Part shown: positions 10,878 to 61,341 of the stretch, piece by piece | How the letters are laid out: every line of letters begins with the position of its first letter | Position numbering within the stretch: position 1 is the stretch's first letter | Source of the DNA: Enoplolaimus lenunculus | Lineage: Eukaryota | DNA: 64,000 nucleotides | Direction of reading: 5' to 3' | NCBI GenBank assembly: GCA_030248215.1 | Contig: JASANG010002509.1 | Coordinates: 496,001-560,000 of the forward strand | Translations under genes and position numbers: made by a program | Notes under the pieces: model-generated | The model's database searches: none | Told to the model about the DNA's origin: nothing | Seen by the model: the letters and a program-made list of their open reading frames with translations, nothing else

Positions 10878-11349
10878 GGCCCATGTAAAGATCAGGGGCG
10901 GAACGTTTTTCTGTGTGACTGCAATAGAATAAGCTTAAGCGTTATACTATTTTTTGCTTCGGTTAGGCTTAGGCTTAGGCTTAGGAATATGCTCATTCTA
11001 ACGCTTAGGCTTAAGCTTTGGCTTAGGCTTAGGAATATGTTCATTCTTACGCTTAGGCTTTGGCTAAGGCTTAGGAATATGTTCGTTCTTACGCTTACGC
11101 TTAGGCTTTGGCTAAGGCTTAGGAATATGTTCGTTCTTACGCTTAGGCTTAGGCTTTGGCTTACGCTTAGGAATATGTTCATTCTTACGCTTAGGCTTTG
11201 GCTAAGGCTTAGGAATATGTTCGTTCTTACGCTTAGGCTTAGGCTTTGGCTTAGGCTTAGGAATATGTTCATTCTTACGATTAGGCTTAGGCTTAGGCTT
11301 GGGAATATGCCTATATAATACTGTTTCGGCACTGTTCGTCACATTAGCC
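10878..11349. mobile_element. Telomere-repeat MITE with internally expanded array
   Basis: TSD caaaatta/caaaagta; ~7 internal units of (TTAGGC)n-AATATGTTC(A/G)TTCTTACGC. Confidence 0.88.
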
Positions 11350-16187: not shown

Positions 16188-16435
16188 GGCCCATGTATAG
16201 AACAGGGCTGGAACAGTAGTATAAGTATATTCCTAAGCCTAAGCTTAAGCCTAAGCCTAAGCGTAGGGATGAGCCTATTCCTAAGCCTAAGCCTAAGCGT
16301 AGGGATGAGCCTATTCCTAAGCCTAAGCCTAAGCTTAACCCTAAGTAAGCCTAAGCAAAAAAATAGTCTAAAGCTTAATCTGACTCTATTATAGCCCCTC
16401 CGGAAAACGATCCGGCCCTGTTCTATACATTGGCC
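16188..16435. mobile_element. Telomere-repeat MITE (subfamily with tgtatagaac TIR)
   Basis: TSD atgacccg/atgatccg; an adjacent degenerate copy lies at ~15998-16157. Confidence 0.85.
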
Positions 16436-19428: not shown

Positions 19429-19690
19429 GGCCAATATAAAGAACAGAGGCGGAACAGTATTATAAGCATATTCCTAAGCCTAAACCTAAACCAAAGTGTA
19501 AGAATTAGCATGCTCCTAAGCCTAAGCCTAAGCCCTAACCTAAGGTGTAAGAATGAGCATATTCCTGAGCCTAAGCGTAAGCCTAAGCCTAAGCGTAAGA
19601 ATGACCGTATTCCTAAGCATAAACCTAAGCCAAAAAACAATAAGTCTAAAGCTTAAGCTTACTCTATTGAAGTCCCACAGAAAAACTCTC
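19429..19690. mobile_element. Telomere-repeat MITE, right end truncated, just 3' of the nAChR gene
   Basis: Left TIR ggccaatataaagaacagaggcggaac followed by (GCCTAA)n blocks. Confidence 0.75.
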
Positions 19691-19870: not shown

Positions 19871-22800
19871 TCAATCCCGGAGTCGCAAGTCGCGTTGAAA
19901 TATCACCAGAACGCTCGACAAAACAGTGATAAATATAAACGCAATCAGTAACGCTCGGTCGATAACAAGCGCAAGTTGTTGCCATTCGAGGCGAATGCTG
20001 TCTTTATGATCTTGTGTCAGTGATCTTTCCTGTACAACAATTGGCAGCGTTTTATTACAACGACAAAGTGCATTTCTAGCATTGGATACTTTTAAATTAG
20101 TAAAATACTGTACAGGAACGTAGCCAGCTCAATATGGTAGAATCAGGAGGGGTACGCATGGATTTTAATGGTTACAAACTAGGTGGGAACGTTTCTCTTG
20201 GGGTCGGATTTTTTTGGGAATATTAGCCCGTTGCCTCACCTGTGGCTGATGGCCTGACATCGGCTCACGTTGTCTTACCTCGTTGCGATTAATCGAACAC
20301 TGAATTTTTTCGAGCACATGAATAAAGTGTTGTTCAATGTACGGTGACGGCACGCCAGCACCTGCTCGCTGTTGAATACTTGAGCCAATCAACGGACGAG
20401 CACTTGCGAACGACCCGAAGCGTGCTGGATTACCATTGGACGATGCAAAGTTTGTTGCAGTTGAATTCAAACCGGCCGCCAATGGCGATTGAGCACACGA
20501 CGGTGACGTTGATTTGAAGCCACGTGATTCGCTAGTTTGATCTTCACTGCCGCTATCGTAGTTATTGTTTGCGTCGTGGTACATGCTGGATAACTTTGAT
20601 TCACGATTAAACAACGGATTCGTTTGCGACCATTCGAGATCTCCGCACGGCTGAAAACTTGGAACCGGTGCAGTTTGAGCAGTTTGAGACCAATGAGTCG
20701 GATTTGGATTTGCTGGTAACTGCCGATCGTTTGGAGGACCCTCAGCCGTAACAAAATGCCGTCCACGCTGATTTCCTGCTTGTGATCGAGGCAAACTTTT
20801 GCTAACGTTAATTGGCATATGATGATTACGGCAACGTGTATCGGTGCTTACTTTGCGACGCTGCAGTTCAGAAGACACCGTTCCGCCTGGAAGAAGGTCG
20901 CCGTTTGGAAGACTTGGACGTGGTTTTGTTGGTTCGGCAGGGTGACAGTTGCCACCTGGCTGCGCTGTTCTTGCGCGTTGATCAGCCGCAAATAGAGCAG
21001 TTGTCAACGGTTCGAGTTCGTCTCGTTCGCCGTTTTTCAACAACTCTGGTGATCCTCGCTGTATCATCAAAATATACAACAACAACAACAACGACAACAA
21101 CAACAACAACAACAACAATGATACTTATTGGGTTAAGTTTAATGTCAACAACCAACCTTAAAACATTCAAACTGTCAAGTATTAACCCCTTCTCACATTG
21201 AGTTGCCTGTAGGCAACTAAGCGCAGTGTATATACGTTAAATAATGTATATCGCACCGTGTTTAACAATTGCAACACGTATACATAGTACTAAATCACCA
21301 CAAGACGTGAGAGCCCCCTCGGGCTCGAGCGTCAAGCTCCTATAGCTGAGTGATGATGGTATACGCCTCCCACTCCAGTCACTGGAGTTCGAATCCTAGC
21401 ATAAAAGTAGGTCTCAGGGGAAATAGACAATATTCATGTGAGAAAGGGTTAAGCAACTAAAAATTGTACAGATAATTTTTAATCTTCGGTAAATTTCACA
21501 AATTTTCGTTTACAGCAATTAATGAAACAAAACCTGGAAACACGAGAAAAATATTTTTTGAAATCAGGAAAGACATTGACGTAAAATCGACAAGAATAAC
21601 CGAAAAGAGTCGTTTTTTGTACATTTTTTATTATAGTATATATGTCGTAGACCAGTCTGGTATTCAGGCTAATTACCAATTGACCTAGGCGAGTCTGTTA
21701 TTCTTAGCAAATAGCCAATTGGCCTAGGCGAAATGGCGATTGTAAGATATAGCAAAACAACAGCGTTGCGAAGCCAACACGAATGGGTTGTCGGTATTGC
21801 GCCTGTCCAAATAATCAAATCGGATTGGTCTATAAGCTTTATAGCAGTTTAGCATAGGCGAATCGCTATTACGGAAAATAACACATTGGCCTAGGCCAAT
21901 TGGTAATTTAGCTGGAATAGCAAATTGGCGTACGACATATACAATAATGTAACCGAGTTAGAGGGGTAAATACTACATACACCACCCAGAATTATGGCAT
22001 TTTTTTGTAAAAAATGAAAAATATTTCATAAGAACAAGTGTACCACGTGATTTGGAAATTCCATAAATCAATAAACCTAAGATTCAGAACCAGCATCTAT
22101 TTTATGTTCCCAAGACAGCGTCCGTTGGTTTAGATAACAGTTAAAAATAATCAAGGCCGTATACTCAAATGGCTATTAATATCAGTTAGCGGCAGGTTTC
22201 AAACAATGGGATAACTCTTACAGAATGTTAACCGTCGTTCTAATATCCTGATTCCGCCACTGACTACCGGATGTTACATAAAAACTACAATAGATCAATC
22301 ATACCCGATTTCGATACAGTAACGTTGTACCAGTTGCATAATGATGCGTTGTAAATACGGTCCGTGGTTCACTGTAACATAACGGACTATGCTGAGCGGC
22401 AGAGGTTGGCACAACTGCGGCCCGATTGGACGAATGTCGACGATTGCAGCCGCTGAGGCGGTGTCCATGATGCGGCCGGCATGTACAGTGTGAAATTTCA
22501 CGCTCGGGCCCAATATTTGGAGGCACTAAATCGACACACATAACTCGAGACAAGTATCTGAAGATGAAAATTCGCAACAGACGTGGAACTCGTTTGCCTC
22601 GAATGCCTTTATGATGAATGTTCAGAGTGAAAACGGTCATCGCTGTTGCGCAACTGACCAAGCATATGGTCACGCCGTAGTACATGCCTGAAATTGTAAT
22701 TTTCAAATGCGCTACTGTGTCTGCGACTGGCTCAGGCACGTATACCTGACATTGCTAATAGAAGAGCATGTCTGACGTACTTCCCAGCCGGAACCGGAGG

Positions 22801-25800
22801 CGCACTTTCATCGCGCTTCCCAAAATGAGAGCGCTTAAAACACATGGGTGAAAATTATATTTCTCTAATCGAAATTTTTTATTTTTGAATTACTGGTTCC
22901 GGGTCACTTGAAGGCGCGGGACCTGCCTCTGATATTAGGATCCGCCCCTGTACAGAAAGTCAGGTTGATTTAAAGAGGGCCAAGAAATTTTTTCTACAAC
23001 ACAATTTTCTTAATTCGATTAATAGTGCATAATACAAGAGCGTGCAATTTTTTTGGGATCAGCATGGTACAAAATGTACCACCGGCCGTTGCGTTTGTGG
23101 CTGACACCCCCCTTGTTTAGTGGGGGGTCGCTATCACATGAATACCTCTAAATTAAACAATAAGAGGACTATGTCTGACGCCGCATGCATAAAGTGTCAT
23201 GGTTCGAACCGGTTGTGCAAAGAACGGGTAGGGCAAAACGCAACGCGTGCCGAGAACATTCTTTTCTACACAGAATGTGCCCAGTTGCATATTGTTGTTG
23301 AAGTATGCATCATCCACTCATGGTTCTATCGACTGATTTTTTTGGCAAGTGGCGACGAATCAAATAACGAGAGAAATTTTGCAATGATGTAAACTAAAAA
23401 CGGGACAGGTTCTAATCTACGAACGGTTCACCAGCTATCAGATTTGCAAGACTATCGTTCAACTAAAGTTATTAACAATATCCGTATTGTTAGGCGCTGT
23501 TCGATCTTACCCTGACAATGGCATGTTCAATTTATATATACCGATTGGCATACAATAATTTAACCATACTTCGCATTAATATCATTTTTATTGTTGCATT
23601 ATTCATATAACGTACGTAACGTTTCCTAAAGCCCTATTCACACGCGCAAGTTTTTGTTGTAGCGAAAACTTGCACATGCAAATTGTATTCGCAAGTTTGG
23701 TCATAAACCAGGTTTGAAGTTCTTGCATCTGTCAATTATTCACTGGAATTTATGCTATTTTATCTAATTCGCAACCTATCAACACAGTTGCAACAATTTC
23801 TTGCACCTGCAGTTTGATTGGTTAACCGGAATGTTCCTTTAAAAATACTTGCCGCTGCGAGTACTTCGTACAAGTCGCTGCTGCGAGTACTCGCTGCAAA
23901 AACTGGCACGTGTGAATGGGACTTAAATCTAATTTGTTATTGCAAATAACAATTAAAATAAACTAATGAGCTTTTAAATTTTTAAAATGGAACATTAAAG
24001 TTTTATAAAAATTGCCTAAATCAGGATAACAGTTGCCTGTCCATGATCCATTCATTGCCAAGTCACCAAAGATTTGTAGGAATAAATGAACGAATTTAGA
24101 CAATAACGTCATTACATATGCAAACGGTCATTACTTACCAATCAGCGGCAGGGCATCAGAAGTTGGAGGCATATTCTCTGCAACAAGCATCATAAACACT
24201 GTCAAACTGAGCAATGTTGTGATTCCCAGCGTTACTTTTTCGCCCGACTCGGAAGGCATATAGAACCCCAACAGTGCAATACCGGTAATCATTACGCAGG
24301 GTAGAATCAAATTGAACACGTAGAACAACGGTTTGCGATTAATGCTAATCACAACGGTTATATCTGGATACGGCTCCTCGCAGCATGAATATTTGACAAT
24401 GTGTTTTTTGGCAGAAATTTTAACCAAATCAAATTCAGTGCTGACCAAATAGTTTGAGTCGTCGCCTTCTTCGGATACAAGGACCAGGTCGATAAGACTG
24501 CCGTCGAATGCCCATGATGCAAATTTGAGCGTACAAACCTGAAAATTTGAAAATCAAAACAAATTAAATGATTTGACAACATTTCAAATAAAAATGACTA
24601 TTTTTTGTTTAAAGCCCTATTCACCCGGTCAAGTTTTTGCAGCAAGTGCAGTTTGCAATGTGCAAGTTTAGCCACAAAGCAGGTTTCCAGTGGAGTCGAT
24701 GATGTATCAAACGATCGGCTCGTACAAAGATCACGGGTGGTAGGTTTTTCTTTGGGACTGCAATAGAGTAAGATTTAGCTTTAGACTAATTTTTAGCTTA
24801 GACTTAGGCATAGGTATAAGCTCATTGTTATGCTGAGTCTTAGACTTCGAAATACGCTTATACTACTGTTACGGCCCTGTTCTATACATTGGCCAAAGGT
24901 TCTCGTATCAGTGTCCAGCCACACAAAGTGATTATCGCATTTGTAACAGTTTTTAATAAAATATACAAACGTTTATTAGCAAATTCCAAGCGGTTACTTG
25001 TTCATCAAACGGATAATATCGAACATTCATTTGGCAGGAACTTTTAAGTATTGCGGCCGATAGCCAAGTAACGTTGCCCATGTAATTTACAAACACATCG
25101 GTACTCATTATAGCGGTGTTGTACTGTGAATCGGCACTAAAATATAACATAAAATTGGCCAAATTTCGGCCCATGTTACTTTTAGGGTCGTCCCGGTTTC
25201 TGGTGGGTCTGTAAAAGAGTAGGCTTTACATTCTAGGCTACATTTTTTCATTTAGGTTTAGGCTTAGGAATACGTTTTTGCGACGTTTAGGCTTTGGAAT
25301 ACGTTTTTGCGACGCTTAGGCTTAGGCTTAAGAATACGCTTAATCGACTGGTACGGCCATAAAAGTAACATTTTTGGCCAAAATTGCAACGACATTTTAT
25401 TCACAGTGTTGGCACATGTACTGAAGGGGTGACTCCCAAAACCCACGGATATTAACAGGCGAAATTGGGTTTTTTAAAAAAATTCGGATATTACCCGGGA
25501 AATTGGAATATTACCCGGGAAATTGGGATTTTGGGCGCAGCCGGTTTCGCTCGGGATTTTTGCAAATTCGGATATTACAAGAGAAATTGGGAATTTCGCA
25601 AACAGGGATATTTATCCAGGAAATTGCGATGGACCCGTTCCATACATGGACCACAACGTTTATAAAACACGCTTACCGGCCTACTAATGGTGCAAATATT
25701 AACAGCAACAACAAATAAGATGATAAAAATTAACATATTCCTATCAAACCAAGCGAAAACAATGTTCTGCTCCAAATCATAATAGCAGTTTTATGCTCAT

Positions 25801-28651
25801 TTGTCTGATGAGAGTCCGAATTTAAATATATCCTAAACTTGCAATCGCCGCCTGATACAGGTAAATATTTTACTTGTTGTATAGCACAATATCTGGTCGC
25901 CATATCTGATCATGAGGCAGGTGCATTTTTTTAATTCCTTCATAATTATCAGGATTCCAGCGCAACTTATAATCAACCCACATCTGAAACGTTCGAAATA
26001 CAACAACTCTGTTTATACTTCAAATTGTTACTAAAAATTAGCGCTAAGCGTTTGTAGATATTGGTCTTTATATAGTTATTTTCTGCCAGTGCCGGCGGAA
26101 CCGCGCGCCCCCCCACCCCCAAACTCATCAGCGGGGGGCCCCCGACTCTTCGAGGGCCCCGACCCTCGAGGGTCCCGATCCTTGAGGGACGCACTTTAGC
26201 AAACTATAAAATTTGTTCGATGACCACGAAGTTATAGAGTTGGAAAGCATTTTATTGTGAGCGTCCTCGGACTCAGTTTGGGGGCCCACTATCTTATGGT
26301 CGGCCCTGTTTTTACTGCACAATTATAAATTTGAGGAATGTAGCATTTTGTGTTTTAAGTTAAAATGAATTACTACCGGGAACGTTTCAGCAATTTTGCA
26401 AACATTTTTTTGGTCTGAATTTCAGTTATGCAACTTGCACAATATCTCATGCGTACACCACTTAACTTTTGATTGAACAGTGTGGTGGACACTGTAGTTT
26501 TATTTGGCATATCACACTGCGGTTCAAACGTTACCTGGTGTACGCATGATATTGTGGAAGTAGCATTATTTAATAGCCAATTTTCAGATTCTTATTTTTG
26601 AAATTTGCGCAAAATAAAGACGACCAAATAATCATAAAATTAACTTTTGCCATCCACACTGTCAATTGCACTACTGTACTGCAGTTGCATTCTGTATACT
26701 AAACAACTCCGATGTGTTTCGGAGCACATACATTCGAGTATCAGCAATAACTTAAAATAATTTTCTATAATTTAGTAATAGTGTCAAAGACAATGCGAAT
26801 TAAATATACTTGATTAATCCATGCGTTCGTCGTCAGGATCTGGTTCCTCTCGTCCTACAAAAGAATGTTTCACTGTCGCCAAATAAATCAAGCCATCATG
26901 TAACGATATAAAGCAAATACTTGCCAACTTGTACTGTCAGTTGCGTTCAGCATTCTGGCCAATGTAAACAACATGGGCGGAACAGTATTATAAGCATATT
27001 CCTAAAGCCTAAGTCTAAGCCTAACCCTAAGCCAAGCAAAAAAATTAGTCTACAGTTTTAGCTTTTATCTATTCTAGCGCCACAGAAAAAAAACGTCCCG
27101 CCCCTGATCTTTACATGACCGCATGTTTTTGATTCGGTATGATTTTAGGTTAAGTTTGTCTTTTCTGACATCTTAAAATAAACAATGAAATATATACGCA
27201 GCGTTCAATTTTATCACATATTACAAATGTGTAAGCTCAGGTTTGGGCTTTAGCTTTAAGTCTAGCCATAGTCTTAGGCGCGAACAAAACTACTGCAAGT
27301 AAATCAGGCTTAAAGTCTACCACGTCGTCTCTACATATCGGCAGGTTGAAGCAAAAGTTGTTTTTATTATAAATTAATAACCAGAGTTTTTAGGAAATAA
27401 TTAGGAAATAATAAAATATTTTGAACAAAAAAAAAGAAAGTTTGCCCAATTGTACCACATCGATAATTTGTGTAAGTGAAAATCCAAATGTCACATTCAA
27501 CGGTTGAGTGTGATTGATCGACGGTCGAACGTTTTTCGAATAATTGTGCATTAAATCATGGTACAGCTTGTAGTAAAGATTACGATGATGGATTAATACG
27601 GGATGCGCGACGGTGGGACTACCTGAAATTATAAATTTCCATAAATACTCACCGGGAAGAATCCACGTGAGTCGTAGGATGATGCTTTCAACGACGACCC
27701 AAGCGGTGGTATGATATTGTTGCGATGAAACTATGGTTTTATATCGAGCTCGCAGTGTGTTTTTTTGCGGCCAAATACTAGAAAATTGATGGGTCGGAAT
27801 TACGAAACGAGGTACTGAGATTGGAAGCACAATTTGTAAACATTAAGATAATTTGCTAAATACTCGTTATCACCTGGGTCAATGTATCGAACAGGGCCGT
27901 AACTGTAGTATAAGCATATTTCTATAAGCATAAGCCTGAAACTAAGCCTAAACCTAAGCGTATCAATAAGCTTACCCCGAAGCCAAAGCCCTAAGCAACT
28001 AAACTTTGTGGAAAGCTTAAGATTACTGTATTGCAGTTCCTCAGAAAAACGTTCCGCCCCTCATCTTTACATGTGCCAAAACCCATAGCTTGAAACGTCT
28101 AAGCAAGTAAACGCAGCCAGCATGGTGTGTCCTGTAAATTCCAGTGAGTTGATTAATCAACTCAGAGAGAGAATTAGTTATTTCTGGTTGTTTTTGACTC
28201 AATAACAGTAAACATTAACGCACTCTGAGCCGATTTAATTCTAGATAGTTCAGTGAATAACTGAGCATGAGCTAAATCAATTCAGAATTCCGAGTCGTAA
28301 AAGGCCTAATTCAGAGCTCAGGCTTCTGAGAGTGGATCCAACTCATTCTGAGTAGAAATTAACTCACTGGAATTTACAGTGTGTCACGAGCAACCGTGTA
28401 TTAACAATAAGCGTAATTTTAATGCAACAAAATTGTCGTATAAACGTTCTCAGCTGTTGGACATGTCAAAAAATATAATTTTACTAAATTCATTGTGTTT
28501 TTACCTTCAATTAAGTACACGTCAATGATGCATAACGCGAAACCAATAAATCTGTTAACCAACTAAAAACACACAAAATTGCCATACCTGATGATAAGCT
28601 GAGCAATTTGACTGCAGCGATAACATGCATAATAGCGTTCACAACCTGCAT
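19871..28651 (-). CDS. Nicotinic acetylcholine receptor alpha subunit (Cys-loop cation channel; alpha9/10- or ACR-26-like), ~748 aa, 9 exons
   Basis: Phase-consistent GT-AG exons (minus): 28651-28588 ([22 protein letters not shown], signal peptide; least certain), 27622-27456, 26854-26810 ([15 protein letters not shown]), 25983-25874 ([10 protein letters not shown]), 25136-24998, 24538-24139, 22687-22305, 21058-20279, 20029-19871 ([11 protein letters not shown] + M4, TGA). Cys-loop [15 protein letters not shown]; vicinal cysteines YSCCEEPY (alpha subunit); M2 [17 protein letters not shown]. Confidence 0.93.
21077..21118. repeat. (CAA)n microsatellite next to an nAChR splice acceptor
   Basis: ~14 CAA units. 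Confidence 0.9.
21186..21448. mobile_element. piggyBac-like MITE carrying a tRNA-derived segment
   Basis: TTAA-ccccttctcacat ... atgtgagaaaggg-TTAA; internal GTTCGAATCC B-box. Confidence 0.78.
21640..21941. mobile_element. Palindromic MITE (nAChR intron)
   Basis: tatgtcgtagacc...ctaattaccaattgacctagg / cctaggccaattggtaatttag...tacgacata. Confidence 0.65.
23629..23923. mobile_element. MITE (PIF/Harbinger-like by termini)
   Basis: aagccctattcacacg ... cgtgtgaatgggactt; related pieces at ~24611 and ~28751-28970. Confidence 0.6.
24717..24894. mobile_element. Telomere-repeat MITE (nAChR intron)
   Basis: Diverged family TIRs. Confidence 0.7.
25168..25379. mobile_element. Telomere-repeat MITE, second subfamily (ggcccatgttact TIR)
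   Basis: Matches the copy at 40355-40543. Confidence 0.75.
26957..27120. mobile_element. Telomere-repeat MITE (nAChR intron)
   Basis: Family TIRs. Confidence 0.8.
27877..28077. mobile_element. Telomere-repeat MITE, diverged
   Basis: Family TIRs, degenerate GCCTAA tracts. Confidence 0.72.
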
Positions 28652-29461: not shown

Positions 29462-29720
29462 GGGTTGCGCTATACTTTTGTTGAAGCCAGACGCCGTCTG
29501 TAACCGTGCGTCACTCGTACGGCGCCGTTAGTCACCGTGCGTCACAAGTATGGCGCCGTCCGTCGGCGCGCGGTATCATGCGCTGATAACTCACGTATGC
29601 GATAACGTATGGTACGAACGGTGACGGACGTCGCCGTACGCGTGACGCTGGTTGACGGACGGCGCCATACGGGTGACGCACGGTGACGGACGGCGTCGGA
29701 CGTCAAGTATAGCGCAACCC
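29462..29720. mobile_element. MITE with GGGTTGCGCTATACTT TIR and (C/T)TAA flanks (Kolobok-like by termini)
   Basis: TIR pair visible; relatives at ~42913, ~43674, ~56106. Confidence 0.7.
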
Positions 29721-39631: not shown

Positions 39632-39737
39632 GCTTAGACTTAGGCTTAGGCTTAGGCTTAGGCTTAGGCTTAGGCTTAGGCTTAGACTTAGGCTTAGGCT
39701 TAGGCTTAGGCTTAGGCTTATGCTTATGCTTAGGCTT
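39632..39737 (+). repeat. Interstitial telomeric tract (TTAGGC)~17
   Basis: Near-pure GCTTAG hexamers with no MITE termini; flanked by a 28-bp direct repeat. Confidence 0.95.
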
Positions 39738-40354
39738 ACACCGTCCACTCAATGAACTCCGCTGCATTCATAAACAATATAAGTAGGTAATAATTGTCGT
39801 CGCCGACAACGCTCAAACCTTCGGTTAAAGTTGAAATAGATTTTCTGTCGGAGCAAGGGTCAGACATCCGGTTCTACAATTTCTTTGTTTATGTCGACAC
39901 TAAACAAGTCATTGTTAAAGTAGAAAAAGGCTGGAAAAGCTATTATTTTGTTTTTGTGATGGGTTTTCTATGCATATCTACAGTTATACGATCCACCAAC
40001 TGTGATTACGTTTCAGGATCGGATAAAGAGGTTTAGCGGCTACTGGTTAATCCAACTTCGGACGTTTCAACCGTATAAACGTTACAATAATCATTCGCTT
40101 ATATTCAATATTTCTTACCTTTTTATTCAGTATGTACAGTGTATCTCAACCAGCGAACACCACTCAAATTCTTTTCAGATTCAACCTTGTGTATACCGGC
40201 TAATAGCCATCTCACTTTGCTACGGGGGTACAAACTTTTCAGGAGGAACATACAAGGGTTTTCGATAACTTACAAGCAACGTCGAAATGTTGCTCCAAAA
40301 ATTCTTCTATGCGGGCTGAGCCCCCATTGACCCGCCTCCGACTACGGGTTCGTG

Positions 40355-49249: not shown

Positions 49250-50132
49250 AACTAAAGCCAAAGTTTAAGCCTAACCGCGTACACCGTAGCATAAGTCTAA
49301 ACAAGAACCTAATCCTGATCCTAAACCTACTGGTCTAACAAATCCGGTCTATGCATTTTCCAATTATCAACCCACTGGTAATTAACATGAACCGAAACTC
49401 CAGGTTTAAGCCTAACCGTACACCGTAGCATAAGCCTAAACAAGAACCTAATCCTGATCCTAAACCTACTGGTTTAAAAAACGCAATCTCTCTGCATTTT
49501 CCAGTTATCAGCCCCAATTATCAACTCACTGGTAATTAACATGAACCGAAACTCCAGGTTTAAGCCTAACCGTACACCGTAGCATAAGCCTAAACAAGAA
49601 CCTAATTCTGATCCTAAACCTACTGGTTTAAAAAACGCAGTCTCTCTGCATTTTCCAGTTATCAGCCCCAATTATCAACCCACTGGTAATTAACATGAAC
49701 CGAAACTCCAGGTTTAAGCCTAACCGTACACCGTAGCATAAGCCTAAACAAGAACCTAATCCTGATCCTAAACCTACTGGTTTAAAAAAACGCAGTCTCT
49801 CTGCATTTTCCAGTTATCAGCCCCAATTATCAACCCACTGGTAATTAACATGAACCGAAACTCCAGGTTTAAGCCTAACCGTACACCGTAGCATAAGCCT
49901 AAACAAGAACCTAATCCTGATCCTAAACCTACTGGTTTAAAAAAACGCAGTCTCTCTGCATTTTCCAGTTATCAGCCCCCTGGTATTTAACATGAGCCGA
50001 AAGCCCAAGTTTAAGCCTGAAAGTACACGATAACATAAGTCTAACCAATAACCTAATCCTGATCCTAAACCTACTGGTCTAAGAAACCCGGTAACCTACT
50101 GGTCTAACAAATCCGGTCTCTAAGCGTTTTCC
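49250..50132. repeat. 154-bp tandem minisatellite, ~5.5 copies
   Basis: aattatcaac recurs at 49362, 49516, 49670, 49825; central units are nearly identical. Confidence 0.92.
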
Positions 50133-50722: not shown

Positions 50723-52065
50723 TATAATTACGATGTACCAAATCTCATGGATCCGTATCACACGGGGATGGAACCGGGCTACTAGTCGGTACTCTATCTT
50801 TCATTGGACGCCCACGTAAATACCGTTATGCATAGAAATGTTGGAAACCTTTTACGACCCGCGAGCATCGACCATAAGATTTTATCAGAAAATCACCTGT
50901 ATAAGACAAATGCCACCTTATCGAACTTAGCCTTGCCGCTGCTAAATATATACATGACACTTGAGTACAAGTTTATCGATTTGTTATTGCATTGTATAGT
51001 AATTCTTTGTATTTGAGCCAGTGCTATAAAAGTTTAAGTACTCTAGGCTTTGTTGGTTTTCAAAAGTAGACAAAATTTAATTAATAGTAACTATACACAA
51101 CACCGCCCGCGCCATATAATGTTTTAGACAACAGTAAAAACACGAACACACTTAAATTAGGTAAAAGTGTCCGTTACAAGGACATACTGAGGATATGTTA
51201 TCAAATTTTGTCTAATGGGTACAAAAAGGGTCAGTTACTTTCAGGAAAAATATACCTAAAATCGAGAAAATACGGTTTTTCCGCTTTTTTTCTGAAAACT
51301 GAAAACCCCAAAAAAATTGGAAAATATCTCATCATGCTTCAACAAATCAAGTGATGTTCAACGGATGCTAAATCTGGTGCAAGTCTGATACTAAGTACTA
51401 AAACTCATGACTATTTTACTATTTATATCAAGATCTGACACAAGATGATAAACATAGGGCAACCACTACAACAGTGTCAGATTTTAAAAAACGTTGCATC
51501 TGCTAACAAGCAGGGTATACAAACCTGTGGGTTGGTACTGCTAGACTGATTTGTAGTGTCATTGTCACAATCAAAAGTTTCACTCAAAATGTACGTTATA
51601 CTACAGCATGGGAATGTTAAATCAAACAAAGCCAACAAAATTAAATACAATGCATACAGATATACAGCAATTATTTTTCGAAACAACGAATGGGAGACAG
51701 CAGCAAAAACAACTCGATAAATGAAACCTCAGTTGACGCAACACAAATTACGACTGTTTCTAGTTCCGATCCGCCATCGCTACAATGAATACAAGCAACA
51801 CTTCTTAGTTTTCGGCGACTTTTTGTTGCTGTTATGCAAGTTATTTGCTGAAATTGATATGTTTTTTAATGTTTCCGTTTTTTCATTTTTTCAACCCCTT
51901 GGCAAAAAACAGCAGCATAAAACAACTTCATTTCACAAAATAAAATGAATGTCGACAGGATGGATAGTGTTAACCCTTATTTTCGTCGAAAAGTTCTAAC
52001 TATTACTGCATGCTGGTTCGTTTTGTCGCTATTACAATAGCGGGCAAAATTTTCAGCTATGACAA

Positions 52066-52278
52066 ATGGGACAGATGGGACAGATATGACAGTTGGACAG
52101 TCGGGACAGTTGGAACAGATGGCACGGTTGGGACAGATGGGACAGTTGGGACAATTGGACAGATTGGACAATTGGGACAGTTGGGACACTTGGGACATAT
52201 GTGAGAATTGGGACAATGGGGACAGTTGGACAATGGGGAGTTGGGACAATGGGGACAGTTGGGACACTTGGGACAGTG
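52066..52278. repeat. G-rich ~10-bp tandem repeat (TGGGACAGT/TGGGACAAT)
   Basis: About 20 degenerate GG(G)ACA units. Confidence 0.88.
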
Positions 52279-53905: not shown

Positions 53906-56900
53906 ATGCTCGACGACGACTCCATCTCATCAACTGGCGTATCATCTGTATCACAGGATGCAGAAGACGTTTCGCTCACACATGTTGCCCGGGGTCCTGG
54001 AAGGCATGTATCGTAAGTTTTTATACATAATGGTTGTGTGCATCTTTGCTGCAACATATATGTTTATGGATCATAGTAACGTTGTAGTACATTGCAAACT
54101 TTTATATACTTGGCATCGATTGTCTATCACAGAATAGCCGCGTACATTCATTACAGAGAAACTGACAGTTAACATTGTAACATTTTCTGAGTTACCATAC
54201 AAACTAGTCGATATAGAGGTTGTGATGTGTGCACCGGGCAACTATTCAGACATACATATATAATTATTAAATTTCTTGTGCAGAAACGTACTATCCAGTA
54301 CAGCAGACAATTTGTTTCTGTTAATTGTAGTTATGTACGCTCCTGATTATGTTTGCTATTATCAGACACATACTTAGCAAGTATTACGTAAAGCGAAACC
54401 GTACAAATACGACACGATGATTCATTTGTAAAAGTGATGGTCCAATATTAACTTATTGTTTGTTTCAGAAGCACCCGAACGATTCTCAATATCTTAAAAG
54501 GCATGATTGGTGCTGGCTGTTTGTCACTACCTGTTGCATTCAAATTTTGTGGACTTTGGGTAGGTAACATATAATAGACATTGCAAATAGTAAATATAGC
54601 ATATTATGGTAATGTAATAAAATTACTGTACTGCGTTCGGATTCTGGCTAAATTGTGCACCGGGACATTGTTTCTGGTACTGTTCATGGTACGTATGGCC
54701 CCGGCCCATGACCGTAAAACATTATTTTATGCCGTGTCGTAAAATGTCGATCAATGTTGTATTTAAATATTATCATCATCTTAAGATTTTGCTGAGACTC
54801 AGCTAAAAATGGCTGCGTAATAGACTTATTCTGCACACATTAAATAATTGTGTTGTACCATCTTATTAGCACAATGCAATGTTCCCATTAATCCAATACA
54901 TTGCATCATTTTAGACTGGCCTTGCACTAACGTTTGTTATCGGAGCATTGAACACACACTGTATGATGATGTTAGTGCGAACGGCACATTTTTTGTACGA
55001 GAAGTAAGGGTGAAATTTTATATATTTTTGGGTTAAGCCGCGAATTACTTGTATAATTCAACAACAAATAGATATACCGCCCCGGTTCCGTCTCAGGTAT
55101 TATAGTTGCTGGATATTACCGCTGAAAAGTGTACCATAACTCTGCATTACACTGGCTCAGGCTGCGGTAAAATTTGCTATCTGGTCGCACCCTGTATACG
55201 TGCCGGTCAGTTTGCAAATCATATGTATATATACATATACGTGTATATATGTCAATATTTATGCGTTTCCACGTATTGATGAAATGAAACTGGAAAGATG
55301 TAAGGTAGCTTTATATCTTTATTGTGTTTAAGAAGTGGAAAAGTCGATTTGGATTACGCGCATCTGGCCAAAAAATCATTTGATTACGGTCCCGAAGCAT
55401 TTCGCTGTCATAGCAAAACAGTTCTGTAAGACTTTATATTATGTTGACAACTTAAAAGGTTTAATGATAGAAAGATAGAATGCGGTATAAACAAATAAAT
55501 AGCTGACATTGAGTTAAATTTGTATTCAATATAGATATCAGATGACTATAGTAAGTGGATTCTACCTAAGCTTTTCCGTAAACGTAAGTTTATGGACATT
55601 TATATCTTTAATGTTAGTTTGTTATTTTGCAGTTACGTCACTAATGTGATTATTTGTCTGTATCAAGTGGGCGTTGGAAGTGTGCAGTTTGTGTTTATTG
55701 CAACGAATCTGAAAGATGTGCGTATGCTTGATCCTGTTTTTCTATTACAAGAAAATAATTTTTATGAACAAAAGTTGATAATGTTCATTGTCTATATGGC
55801 ATATGAGCGTTAAACTGACGTGATAGTATATGACACAAAATGTGCCTCCTCGCGTTGCATTTTTGCCCGACAATGTGATTCGGTAGGGGGATTGTCGCAA
55901 TCAATCTATACATATTTACGAAAAAACGCGTGAGTTGCTCAAGAATATATAAGCGTAGCATAATTGATTTTTGTCAACAAAGCAAACTTGACCCCCTTTT
56001 ACACATGTAATCGTGGTCGGTATCTTAAACTAACCGTATTATATCATTCAAAATTGTTGCTTCGTAGAAGTTCTGACTTGCTTAACTTCTAAGTGAACGT
56101 ATTAAGGGTTGCGCTATACTTGACGTGTGGCGTTGGGCGCCGTTTGAGTGACGCATGGTGACGGACGACGCCGTACGAGAGACTCACGGTGACGGACGGA
56201 GCCGGACATCAACAAAAGTATAGCGCAATCGTCAGTTGTGTAACTTTAACGCTCAAGTTCTGTTATGTTTGCTGTCGTAATTCAATGTTTACTTCAGGTA
56301 TTTTAGGTTTTAAAATCATTCGATGCGAAAATAGATCTCGATGTAGGCGTGTATATGTCGTGCATTTTGTTACCTGTGATTTTGATTTGCTTCATACGTT
56401 CGTTCAAACCAATGGCGTATTTGTCGGCTGGAGGCAACCTATGCATGGTACTCGGGTTTATTATCGTACTACAGTACATCATACGACCACCGAATGTGTA
56501 CAACACCACTGACGCATGGTTCCATGATTTTCGTCGCCTCATTCTGTTTCTCGGTGGCGCTCTGTATGCTTTTGAAGGCCAAGCTATGGTGAGACGTTAA
56601 GTAAAACTGATGCTTTTGCACAAGAATGGAATTTACTGCTCAAGGATTATAGAAGTGAGTATACCAACGAAGTCGATTAAGTTTAAAACCTTGTGAATTA
56701 CGAAATTATAACGAATAATAGCATAGCAACTAATTTACAGATTTTGTACCATTGAATTTCAACGGTTATTGTTGTGATAGCTGGGTTGGATCATCATGTT
56801 ATGCGTGGCCTTGCTCCAGACCGAGAAATTCGGCTACTTTCTTCGGTTGCTTCCATAAGTCTATCGGTTGCAGAGTTGTAGGGTTAGAAGGGCACTTGAA

Positions 56901-59900
56901 CACGTGCTGCACATCGTGGGGGCGTGTCTTGCAGCTCGGACACTTGTTTTCGACGGACGAATCTATTTTGCACGTGTACGAGTTCAGCATCTTGCTATGG
57001 CCCGACCGTAGTTGTGCCATTGTGCATCTTGCTTCTCTGCTGAGTTCTTTCTCCGACTTGTCGATGTCAGGCGGAGGCCTGCAGAGAACTGCATTGGCGA
57101 TGTAATTACTCAGCACGCGGTTGACGGTGTCGGTGTGAATCGTTTCAAGTCCCTTCTTGTAGTTTCGCGGGTCCATAGAAACATCTGACCCTTCTTGTAT
57201 TCGTCGGATTGCTCTGTCGTATTTTCTGAACGTGCCCTTCATGTTGCGAGGTGGTAGACGCGACTTAGTCAGGTGGTGGCATGGACGAGACTCGCGGCGG
57301 CAGCTGAGTAGATACTGTTTCGAGAGCATCTCCGTGTGTGGTTTGACTGGCAGCATTAAAGTTTCCTGGTGTAAAGAGCATTGCGATCTGTTTGGAACAA
57401 TTTACACTTTTGCCATTGAACACGATTGCTTGCTTGCCGGCGGTGGAGTCGGCTCCTCTAGTCAGCGATTTAATTGTTTTCCACAACTTGTTGGTTGAAG
57501 TGTGGCAGTCATATGTGCTTAGGTGTTCACGCCACTTCGTTTGCTTGTAACTTTTAACGATGCCTCGGATTTCGGTGTTCAGCTCGAAGATTCGCTTAGA
57601 GTTCGGTTCCCGTTCTCTGAGGTTGTCCCTTTCTTTGGCTAGAGCGGCTGCTTCTTGTGGGTAGTTCGGCTTGATCTTAGGTATTCTACCCGTAGGAATA
57701 TGGTGACCCGAAGCCTTGTTGACAATTTTCTGAATTTCTTTTCTGCTTTTAGCAGCGAGGTCGGGGGGCTCAGGGCACTGAACTTCTCTTCTGTTTCCGC
57801 ACAGAAACCATCCCAATCGGCCTTGTTGAGATTTAGGTAGGTTTTACGTTCTGACCATACGAAGCCTTTATCTTGAGCAAGGGAGATGATCACAGGCAGG
57901 TGATCAGAGCTGAGCTTCTACTCAACGGACCATTCGGTGTAGGGCAACAGGGAATGCGATGCCAGCGATATGTCCGGTGAGGTAGGTCGGCCATTTACTG
58001 GGAGCCTGGTAGGTTGCTTGAGATTCATTACGCCGAAATTCGAGTTGCCGATAGCGTCAGATAGTAGATTGCCTCTGGTATCTGCAAGGGAGGAGTACCA
58101 TAGATCGTTATGGGCATTGAAGTCACCAATCACAACGGCATCACTGAACTTTAGTAGAGTGTCGAAGTCGGGTCTGAAATCTGTATCGCAACTGCTATGC
58201 GGCGGTATGTAGGTGTTGATGACAGTGAAATCCGCATTGCAAAGGCTGATCGAGATTCCATCTGTCTCAGTGAAGTTATCGTTGACGTTGACGTTGATCA
58301 GCGTGTGGGGTACCGAATCATGGACAATGAAGGCTAGACCTCCTCCAGCGTCTCTGGTGCGATCTTTCCGAAGGAGCGAGTAGTTTGCTGGGCACTTCAG
58401 CTTCGATTTGCCGGACAACTTAGTTTCTTGCAGGGCGGCGACCACAACTTCGTTCGCCTCCATGTAGGCCACGATTTCATCGATCTTGCTTTGAAGCCCG
58501 TTACAGTTAAATTGCAAGTTTTTCAGCCATGAGCCGGAGGTCGAGGTAGCCGGGGCATTGGTTTTGGACGGCTGTTGTTGATGCGGAGGACCTTGCGGAG
58601 CGCGCGGTGGCAGGGGTCCATTTGGCTGTGGCTGACGAAGGAGCACGCATGCAGGGCAGACATATAGTTCACTACATGTTTTTGGATTGATCGTTTCGGT
58701 TAAAATGACACCATTCTTGACACGACGAACATTGGACAGATTTTTGGTTCCAGGTGACCTTATTCTGACAGGCGGGACAGAAGTAGATAGGACCCGGGTT
58801 CCTTTCGATGCCAGCGATTTGGAGCAGGGTACGGATCAACGATACCGGCATGGGTTGATCCGAGCCGCAAAACACGGCCGCAATCTGGAGCATAACGGTG
58901 ATAACCATAACGATGATGACCATCCAGAGTTGAGTTCTCGTCCTTTGTACTCACTGTGAGGCGAGTAGCGGTCGAACCATCGAGCAGGCGACGAGAATGA
59001 CGACCTCAACGGTTATTGGAATTTATTGTTGCATCCGGGTCCGGGTATTCGGGTTATTCACGGTATTTTCGCCAAAAAATTTCGGGTTATTCAGGGTATT
59101 TTCGCCAAAAATTTCGGTTCCAGGTCCGGGTTTTCGCTTCAAGAACTTCCGGATCCGGGAAATCACAACAAATCATTCCGGATCCGGGTCCGCATATTAC
59201 AAAAATACCCGGAATAAAATTATCTTAGTGGTTTTAACATACCACGCGTACAGTCTGAATAACCTACGTCAGGGTGCAACCGGAATTACAATTTACCGGA
59301 ACCGGAACCGGAATTTGAAAATTTTACCGGAACCGGAAAGTGAAAAATGCATTTCACCAAAAATTTCATTGTAATCTTATTTTTCGCTCTGTTATTTGTG
59401 AAATAACCTTAGTCGAACATAGGTATTTATTTTATTTGTTGTATTTTAGATTTTCATCATCGACTGAAGTGAAATCCACCATCAATGGCTTATATTCGGA
59501 GTACAAGTGGCTTTCAAAAGAGATTCTTAAAAATTAGCAAAGTTAAGAAAACGGCCAAATTATAATACCGGAATTTTTAAATCCGGTAAAAATTTACCGG
59601 AACCGGAACCGGAAGGTGAAAAAATGCCGGAACCGGAATTCCGGTTGCACCCTGACCTACGTAGATGTACTAGGGTTACGATTACGAATGTTTAATTAGG
59701 AATGGTTGGGATGCAGAGACACGACATGTCTCATTTTAAGTTATTAATTCTACGTTTTACTTAATGATTTACTTGACATAAATTTTTGTGAACGTCATTT
59801 AGTCGCTTCGCATTGCATACCACCCATTAATATTTTACACACTGAGCTGCTAGAATATAGATGGAGACAGAAATTCTTTTTATCTTTAAAGTATTCGGAT

Positions 59901-61341
59901 CATGTTCAGTTTTTAAGTTATAAAAATTTCGCGCCCGTGTTTGTGCGGAAAACAAATCCGGGTCCAGGTTTGCATTCTTAAAAATTCCGAGTCTTGGCCC
60001 GGATTTTTCTCCGGGTCTGGGTCCGCGTTTGCATTTTTAAAAATTCCGATTCATTTTTGCCAGTTTGTAATAATTAATTGTGCTCAATTTTGTGCTTGAG
60101 TTGCTGTGAACTGATTTAATTCAGCTGTGAGATTGTCACTGAATTGACCTATCGCCTGATTTATATTTCAGATTTTGCCAATGGAAAACGAGATGAAGCA
60201 TCCTAAAGATATGGCTCGCACCATGGGCGTATTGCACACCTCAATGATTCTGGTGTCCACGATATTTGCTTCAACTGGTTTTTTCGGGTATCTCAAGTTC
60301 GGTTCCGCTGTTGGATCTACGATTACTATTAGTATGCCTGATTCACCGTATGTTAACATTTTAAATAATTTTCTTTGTAATTTCAAGCATGAACTTCTAT
60401 AGTAATTCCGCATCAAAGTTTTTTGATGCGAAATGCAAATAAAATGTCGTCGATAGTTTTTGATTGGGTACGTCATCTCGTATTCAGGTTCAGAGGAAAA
60501 TGGACATGTGTTTAATAATTTGAACCGTGGTGGTTCTGGAGTTACAGTGTATTTTGCAGTTAGGAGTATTAGGTAGAAAGTATATTTTCGACTGTGAGCT
60601 CATATCAGAGTCATCTCGTATCCCACCGTCTGCTATGTACAGACTAGTTCAAATAGTATTGTTGTTAGTGCTTTTCTCTTATATGTTTGCAATTAGTTTG
60701 TTAATTTCCATGTTAATTTACAGCGTTTATCAACTTGTTAATGTACTTGTGTGCGGTGCGACCTATTTTGGACTCCCATTGCAAAACTACGTCATCGTTA
60801 GTGCATTGTGGCCCGCAATTCGTAGAAAAATGCCACAATCTCTATTGTATTATGCAGTTGTGTTTGATTCAATATTTCGCGTGTTAATAGTGTTGCTTGA
60901 ATGTAAGTATCTTTTGGTTTTTATTAGCATTGCGTTTTAAATGATTAAAATAAAGCCAAAATATTAGATACACTGCGGTTTTGTTATTAAACGTGTAGGA
61001 CAGCATAATTTTTATACACAGAAATTGATTTTACAATTAAAAATCTGAAATCTGGCTGTGTGAAGGCCTTTTTGTTTTCAGATGCGCTTGCCATGGCCTT
61101 GCCAGATCTAACATCAATTATTCCGTTCATCGGCATTACACTTGGCATGGTGATTTCGTTTATACTTCCGCCTTTCTTGGAAACAGTTACATTTTGGGAG
61201 ACTTGGACTAATCGTGAACTGACCCCTCGCTGGACACAGGTTGCTCATTTGACGAAAAATGCTGCGCTCGCTACGTTCGGCATTGTATCGATTATTACAG
61301 GGTTGTATGCGAATATTGTTCAGTTGATGCATAAAGTATGA
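53906..61341 (+). CDS. Proton-coupled amino acid transporter, SLC36/PAT-like (Aa_trans family), ~453 aa, 9 exons
   Basis: Phase-consistent exons: 53906-54012, 54469-54559 (NILKGMIGAGCLSLPVAFK), 54915-55003, 55333-55425, 55633-55717, 56307-56588 (LYAFEGQAM), 60172-60347 (ILPMENEMKHP..GFFGYLKFG), 60724-60902, 61082-61341. Summed length is 1362 bp, in frame to TGA. Confidence 0.92.
56799..58923 (-). pseudogene. Disrupted single ORF of the retrotransposon (2A-like peptide, PHD-like finger, APE, [RT deleted], C-terminal Zn knuckle)
   Basis: Frameshift near 58680, in-frame TAG at 57918-57920, frameshift near 57725. Pre-RT linker sequence (LWKTIKSL...KQIAMLF) is fused directly to post-RT sequence (LHQETLMLPVKPH) near 57372-57376. 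No YADD-type motif seen in the ORF track. Confidence 0.85.
58935..59005 (-). ncRNA. HDV-like self-cleaving ribozyme at the 5' end of the retrotransposon
   Basis: Minus-strand RNA: GGUCGU CA UUCUCGUC GCC UGCUCGAU GGU UCGACC GC UACUCGC CUCACA GUGAGUA CAAAG GACGAGAA. Helices: P1 GGUCG/CGACC; P2 8 bp; P3 GCC/GGU; L3 UGCUCGAU; P1.1 GC/GC; P4 7 bp; J4/2 with catalytic-position C. G1 is the first base inside the TSD. Confidence 0.85.
59270..59654. mobile_element. hAT-like MITE (CAGGGTGCAACCGG TIR, CCGGAA subterminal repeats)
   Basis: TIR cagggtgcaaccggaatt / aattccggttgcaccctg; perfect 8-bp TSD acctacgt. Confidence 0.88.

Follow-up and report, generated by a model that had tools for sequence, protein, structure and literature searches.

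A predicted HDV-like ribozyme with a flipped P1.1 pair at the 5′ end of an Ingi/Vingi-like LINE

HDV-like ribozymes at the heads of LINEs are already known from L1Tc/ingi, R2, R4 and RTE elements. In the L1Tc family they cut at the element +1, and some well-folded trypanosome copies are inactive (PMC4035085). R2 ribozymes have P1 stems of 6–7 bp; about a quarter of these are mismatched at the top, and a single P1 measures 4 nt. The weak activity of another HDV-like ribozyme was attributed to a U–U mismatch in P1 (PMC3774820). The importance of U20 and G25 for the active site has been described (PMC13635239, PMC6326823). A design descriptor combines the catalytic C with CRRA-type purines in J4/2 and fixes P1.1 as C21–G39/C22–G38 (PMC6326823), and natural HDV-like members differ at P1.1 (PMC13635239). 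Pair 21:39 is C–G in HDV, U.U in CPEB3, C.U in the C. briggsae ribozyme and U.U in the Ackermannviridae ribozyme (PMC13635239, PMC4836649, PMC9901934); pairwise mutagenesis of CPEB3 showed that G:C and C:G both give activity at the matching pair (PMC9901934). Activity falls with the nucleotide at −1 in the order U, C, A, G (PMC1874588).

The fold at the head of the element

We analysed a stretch of 64 kb (the window), in which a first-pass annotation had proposed an HDV-like ribozyme on the minus strand. A base-by-base check reproduced every helix pair and coordinate named there. At the level of sequence pairing, all five HDV helices occur in the expected order, which from 59005 on the minus strand reads P1, J1/2 (3 nt), P2, P3, L3 (8 nt), an unpaired U, P1′, P1.1′, P4, J4/2 and P2′. 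P1 consists of five Watson–Crick pairs (59005–59001 with 58974–58970), P2 of eight pairs (58997–58990 with 58942–58935), P3 of one G.U and two C–G pairs (58989–58987 with 58978–58976), P1.1 of a G–C and a C–G pair (58985–58984 with 58969–58968), and P4 of seven pairs including one G.U, closed by a 6-nt loop. J4/2, with the sequence CAAAG, opens with C58947, the equivalent of C75, and contains the CRRA-type purines. The equivalents of U20 and G25, which form the reverse wobble of L3, are located at 58986 and 58981.

P1 is as short as had been claimed, since the unpaired U58975 between P3′ and P1′ faces U59000, leaving five pairs and a U.U mismatch; this falls inside the range reported for R2 (PMC3774820), and a short P1 is not new. 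P1.1 is indeed a variant in which pairing is kept and the orientation is flipped, giving G21–C39/C22–G38 in place of the C21–G39/C22–G38 of the descriptor. As G:C is active in CPEB3 (PMC9901934), the flipped pair would be compatible with catalysis. The nucleotide at −1 is A. In folding predictions, 10–20 nt of native leader compete with the core (leader pairing 0.5–0.6), and P2 stays intact (0.84–0.85) when the native flank is lengthened to 30 or 100 nt. An uncontrolled prediction of a duplex between head and tail of the element is not claimed.

With the strict descriptor, the site at 59005 was the sole match on both strands of the window (128 kb), in line with the proposed location. Looser descriptors matched three other window sites in one version and one in another, all of them AU-rich with a short P2 or P1. 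The covariance models, also suggested as a check, gave no support: Rfam returned no ribozyme match in 57000–61000 at E ≤ 10 and none in seven relatives at E ≤ 1. A match to the Xanthine riboswitch at 57870–57928 (E 2.2) was dismissed as chance. The plain folding energy of the 71 nt is unremarkable (z −0.82), which is to be expected of a folding program that does not handle pseudoknots. The descriptor was loosened after the sequences of the relatives had been read, and pairing inside a match holds by construction; evidential weight is therefore carried by the position of the fold and the null rate, and not by pairing within descriptor matches.

The retrotransposon copy and its surroundings

The fold stands at the head of a non-LTR retrotransposon copy, the whole segment of which is GC-richer (Table 1). 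The predicted +1 of the ribozyme is the first base inside the target duplication, so that the claimed coincidence of cleavage point and duplication boundary was borne out: 59005 adjoins the 13-bp repeat at 59006. The duplication may measure 10–13 nt, as its first 3 nt could be part of the CAA-type tail of the element.

Table 1. Features of the element and its host intron
Feature	Position	Strand	Basis
Host intron, amino-acid transporter gene (PF01490)	56590..60170	+	Flanking exon matches; GT/AG; boundaries by eye
Target-site duplication, 5′ copy	59006..59018	.	13 nt, identical to 3′ copy
Non-LTR retrotransposon copy with internal deletion (2234 bp)	56772..59005	-	Target duplication; depth changes stepwise at either end (three runs, one study)
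Predicted HDV-like nested double pseudoknot, 71 nt	58935..59005	-	Pairing check; predicted cut 5′ of G59005
ATG, hydrophobic leader peptide, 2A-like motif	58789..58923	-	Sequence; 65 of the 141 homologous proteins have a similar motif, and many of the 141 begin downstream of it
PHD-like cysteine finger, broken near 58662-58676	58675..58788	-	PF00628 E 0.017, weak, below cut-off
AP endonuclease domain	57921..58526	-	PF14529 E 5.6e-12, PF03372 E 1.9e-10
Deletion junction, ~440 residues missing including the whole reverse transcriptase	57373..57374	-	tblastn; high-depth contigs
C-terminal region, CCHC-type motif and stop	56799..57373	-	43-45% identical to three full-length relatives at the C-terminus
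Short 3′ UTR with CAA-type tail	56772..56798	-	Sequence
Target-site duplication, 3′ copy	56759..56771	.	13 nt, identical to 5′ copy

The ATG, expected about 12 nt downstream of the ribozyme, begins at 58923, 11 nt 3′ of P2. It is followed by the 2A-like motif GIERNPGP (58812–58789, minus strand), at which ribosome skipping may occur. This motif has a G where the 2A consensus has D; G replaces the usual D at this position in 55 of the 141 homologous proteins (P0001–P0141), and D is found in ten. The PHD-like finger, which shows a gap relative to other copies, has comparable weak matches in four of eight relatives. A stop codon at 57918–57920 comes right after the AP endonuclease. In tblastn against P0001 the window copy jumps from residue 456 to 898, the gap of ~440 residues in the window copy appears against three relatives, and the high-depth contigs depart from the window sequence at 57373/57374 from both sides. 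The first-pass annotation had overlooked this loss of the whole reverse transcriptase as well as the stop and the frameshifts. The CAA tails are longer in the relatives L002, L004 and L013. Together, AP endonuclease (APE), reverse transcriptase (RT), duplication, simple-repeat tail and many copies characterize an APE-type non-LTR element, the RT being present in the relatives.

Read depth was taken from three runs of one study, which represent at most two samples and possibly the source of the window itself. It increased from 35 in the flank to ~1000–1300 over the element in run X1 and from 14 to mostly 400–900 in run X3, a rough sign that the family has some tens of copies. The high-depth contigs contain neither the stop nor the frameshifts of the window copy and continue with different sequence where the deletion lies. 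The window copy is likely a defective member of a young family, the commoner form of which keeps the RT. Copies at high depth mostly differ by a few percent, indicating a recent expansion of the family with this head in place. Among the 40 of 98 differences listed, G–C takes the place of the P4 wobble (58953) in other copies, across the full depth of each of the three runs. One variant, which was seen in a single run (58942; depth 180 of 483), disrupts the final pair of P2, and none of the listed differences affects 59000 or 58975. At 56827–57282, contigs of single-copy depth are ~85% like the 3′ part of the element and may stem from a sister family or from copies that are older and have diverged.

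The annotation had described an intronic retrotransposon and noted that some LINEs use HDV-like ribozymes to free their 5′ end from host transcripts. The position inside a transporter intron was confirmed. The element lies on the minus strand, antisense to the plus-strand gene; the host pre-mRNA would not be cut, and sense RNA would need antisense read-through or an internal promoter. The same intron contains a very high-copy, MITE-like element of 400 bp with 26-nt terminal inverted repeats (59262–59662), where summed contig depth reaches 1e5–7e5 against 35 in the flank. Another repeated sequence, at 59030–59220 (depth 300–4000, many variant contigs, 33-nt tandem unit), lies upstream of the target duplication and starts ~25 nt from it.

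Further away, minus-strand exons of a nicotinic acetylcholine receptor subunit are found at 20165–27842, with nematode proteins as best named matches. Of the ten matches examined, eight are named, the top-scoring one not among them; for named matches, identity is 72% to Ancylostoma, 70% to Toxocara, 68% to Nippostrongylus and 65% to Caenorhabditis; outside nematodes it is 64% to a springtail and 63% to a snail. Many interstitial arrays of TTAGGC, the nematode telomere unit, are scattered over 2629–43347 (e.g. 10956–11309, 16232–16356, 19473–19631 and 39632–39738), some within longer repeated units. Receptor exons and arrays make the nematode host that had been assumed likely. The window also contains a 154-bp tandem array (49360–50086; 4.8 copies, 94% matches), a 9-bp minisatellite (52061–52277) and 31-bp tandem units alike at 29492–29695 and 56138–56198, perhaps one small repeat family.

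Relatives of the element and their heads

The homologs are single ORFs, mostly of 1000–1200 residues with APE and RT (43 proteins in one search and 375, of which 120 were listed, in another). RNase H was detected in none of eight full-length relatives, and the C-terminus of the window copy is too small for one. The single ORF with an N-terminal 2A-like motif agrees with the published description of Ingi (PMC3708506), the missing RNase H does not; a compact single ORF lacking RNase H is the arrangement of Vingi. On these sequence features the element is an Ingi/Vingi-like LINE. The RT of the group is characterized by DLSKAFD (100 of 110 proteins) and motifs of the GVPQG-A/G-V-T/L-SP types. By comparison, the reference RTs Ingi-1_Pp, -1_BF, -2_BF, -1_AAl, -1_Tcas and -3_SPur, which probably belong to Vingi (two of them by matching names), mostly read DL(S/T)AA(F/Y)D and PQGSVLAP. 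These six RTs of the RNase H-less type came from the supplement of PMC3708506 and were compared by eye; the two matching names are those in PMC3391268. As judged by eye, the RT motifs would point away from core Vingi.

A metagenome scan left 80 loci, of which 18 count as close relatives at E 1e-36 or better. Twelve of the close loci have a 2A-like motif, hence reach the 5′ region, and make up the counted set; L001, L005, L006, L009, L010 and L016, which lack a 2A motif and extend only a short way upstream, were excluded. The fold criteria were fixed for counting, but set after inspection of the relatives' sequences; an earlier, stricter scan had found two of 18, and the next version five plus three with one P1.1 mismatch. 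Under the fixed criteria the fold was located 175–250 nt 5′ of the 2A motif in seven of the 12 relatives (193 nt in the window), and it was found in none of 13 antisense regions and none of 780 dinucleotide shuffles. Seventy distant loci (572 kb, both strands) contained two scattered descriptor sites, 20 pattern matches in viral contigs included no confirmed one, and eight distant loci in GTDB contigs gave no descriptor match. The distant APE-type retrotransposon-like sequences in bacterial MAG contigs (L081–L088) are likely eukaryotic contamination of the bins.

The five relatives not matched under these criteria differ from each other. L011 carries the fold with A replacing G25, the sequence of L008 begins just downstream of the ribozyme position, and L018 has no ribozyme candidate even with a looser search. 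Looser, uncalibrated candidates occur at L003:369–470 (no P4, long J1/2) and at L013:231–310 (mismatched P2, and a P1.1 of U.U/U–A like that of the Ackermannviridae ribozyme).

Counting L002 and L007 once and including the window, the fold is present in eight lineages that are 33–58% identical in APE. They have eight different P1 sequences of 5–7 pairs, L004 likewise having five pairs and a mismatch. J1/2 comprises 2–3 nt and P2 6–8 pairs, J4/2 begins with CAA in all eight, C75 is kept, and U20.G25 is kept in seven. Pair 21:39 is G–C in five lineages, A–U in one (L015) and C.C in two (including L002), and pair 22:38 is U–A in four, C–G in three and U.G in one; this pair table is descriptor-based, as MAFFT alignments of the ribozyme were wrong by eye. 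On these sequences, what is new is a predicted purine-21 P1.1 with natural covariation; we found no natural example among the published HDV-like ribozymes compared here. The fold had been presented as a feature of a nematode element, but it is general to the lineage and not nematode-specific.

L002 and L007 represent separate insertions of a single family, unrelated upstream and 99.7% alike from −1 on. Their identity from one base before +1 provides a second case in which the element boundary is the predicted cut site. No target duplication was seen around the four full-length relatives tried, which may be due to collapsed assemblies of several copies. The ATG is 51–170 nt away in seven relatives, and none was found in one.

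Proposed role, alternatives and known systems

The head of the element is very likely a ribozyme, judging from its predicted fold and the recurrence of that fold. On paper the 71 nt supply every part of an HDV-like double pseudoknot, which begins with the first base of the Ingi/Vingi-like LINE. We consider it probable that this pseudoknot cleaves itself 5′ of G59005 and thereby sets the exact 5′ end of the RNA. By analogy with the chemistry of the HDV family, C58947 would serve as general acid, Mg2+ would be held near the U20.G25 pair and the resulting 5′-OH end would be buried in P1. A transcript of the element strand, started upstream or arising by read-through, would be trimmed by the predicted ribozyme and might then be translated without a cap. 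Target-primed reverse transcription would copy this RNA to its end, placing +1 against the target duplication; the window copy, having no RT, would need full-length siblings in trans.

An unlikely alternative is that the head serves chiefly as an internal promoter, or as a 5′ structure that protects the RNA or helps translation, with cleavage weak or secondary. Pr77 of L1Tc is promoter and ribozyme at once (PMC3383444), the antisense copy needs another source of sense RNA, and the ATG is merely 11 nt downstream. However, the distance to the ATG is not conserved among the relatives, and the fold, C75 and U20.G25 (in seven of eight lineages) are kept while the primary sequence varies freely, a pattern more easily reconciled with catalysis than with a DNA promoter. 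The two roles are compatible with each other.

It is about equally unlikely that the ribozymes of the lineage work while the head of this particular family is slow or dead, owing to the U.U at 59000:58975 on top of P1 and to competition by the leader. Besides that mismatch, the predicted leader pairing with 10–20 nt of native flank and the coding-dead state of the window copy point in this direction. On the other hand, P2 is predicted to withstand longer flanks, L004 has a comparable P1, a quarter of the R2 ribozymes have a mismatched P1 top (PMC3774820), and the family multiplied recently with no variant at either position among the 40 of 98 differences listed. A chance match to a permissive descriptor, to which the additional loose-descriptor sites, the blank Rfam result here and in seven relatives and the z score might be taken to point, is already largely excluded and has a negligible probability in view of the exact coincidence with the element boundary, the seven further lineages with the fold at the same place and the 0 of 780 shuffles.

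The mechanism of a self-cleaving LINE head is itself established for related elements, and the surprise is accordingly moderate. With the predicted ribozyme, 5′ HDV-like ribozymes would be extended to a dispersed animal LINE lineage, and a blind spot of Rfam is exposed. Natural covariation would be supplied for the second P1.1 pair, position 21 being a pyrimidine in the solved or probed ribozymes compared. A literature search largely confined to open-access papers brought up no description of a ribozyme for Vingi or for an Ingi-like element from nematodes. A survey of ribozymes in LINEs that reportedly covers the Ingi clade (Ruminski 2011) may already contain this lineage or the G21 variant, and Kojima 2011 may also bear on novelty. 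The list of six ribozyme-bearing clades in PMC5786205 does not name the lineage as such, and the element lineage may be unnamed.

More tentatively, we propose a broader reading, which we regard as possible but not the probable case. The element might belong to an unnamed, widespread I-group LINE lineage of ~3.6 kb (2A, PHD, APE and RT, no RNase H) that is neither Ingi nor Vingi and is headed by a distinct purine-21 subclass of HDV-like ribozymes (G–C, with a natural A–U covariant). This subclass would be invisible to Rfam and to descriptors with a fixed C21, so that many eukaryotic ribozymes would have been missed, and the lineage could offer a new compact all-RNA scaffold for gene insertion with built-in 5′ processing. 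Gene-insertion tools are being developed from Vingi-type elements, and for such tools the part played by the 5′ UTR is important (PMC13708176).

Vingi itself (PMC13708176, PMC5786205) resembles the element in its compact single ORF, the absence of RNase H and its internal-deletion derivatives; it differs in the RT motifs, by eye, and in that 2A-like motifs, common in this group, were not detected in Vingi (PMC3708506). In R2, R4, Dong, RTE and LOA (PMC3774820, PMC5786205), too, a LINE is released from a longer transcript by an HDV-like ribozyme. These ribozymes share the variable P1 and P4, and a nematode example exists in the Ascaris R4; R2 and R4 are site-specific and use another endonuclease, whereas the window element is APE-type and dispersed. 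The ribozymes of HDV, CPEB3, C. briggsae and Ackermannviridae have the five helices, C75 and U20.G25 in common with the predicted fold (PMC13635239, PMC9901934, PMC4836649), but all four have a pyrimidine at 21, where the window has G paired with C. In the L1Tc-type elements, L1TcRz/Pr77 (L1Tc, NARTc, ingi and RIME; PMC3185411, PMC4035085, PMC3383444) is a compact HDV-like ribozyme of ~70–80 nt that starts at +1 of an APE-type LINE. Such a LINE has one ORF with a 2A-like motif near the N-terminus, internally deleted derivatives and target duplications, which measure 11–12 nt in trypanosomatids. The present element differs from these in its animal host, the lack of RNase H (0 of 8) and its PHD-like finger, and L1TcRz has a single P1.1 pair where the predicted ribozyme has two Watson–Crick pairs with G at 21.
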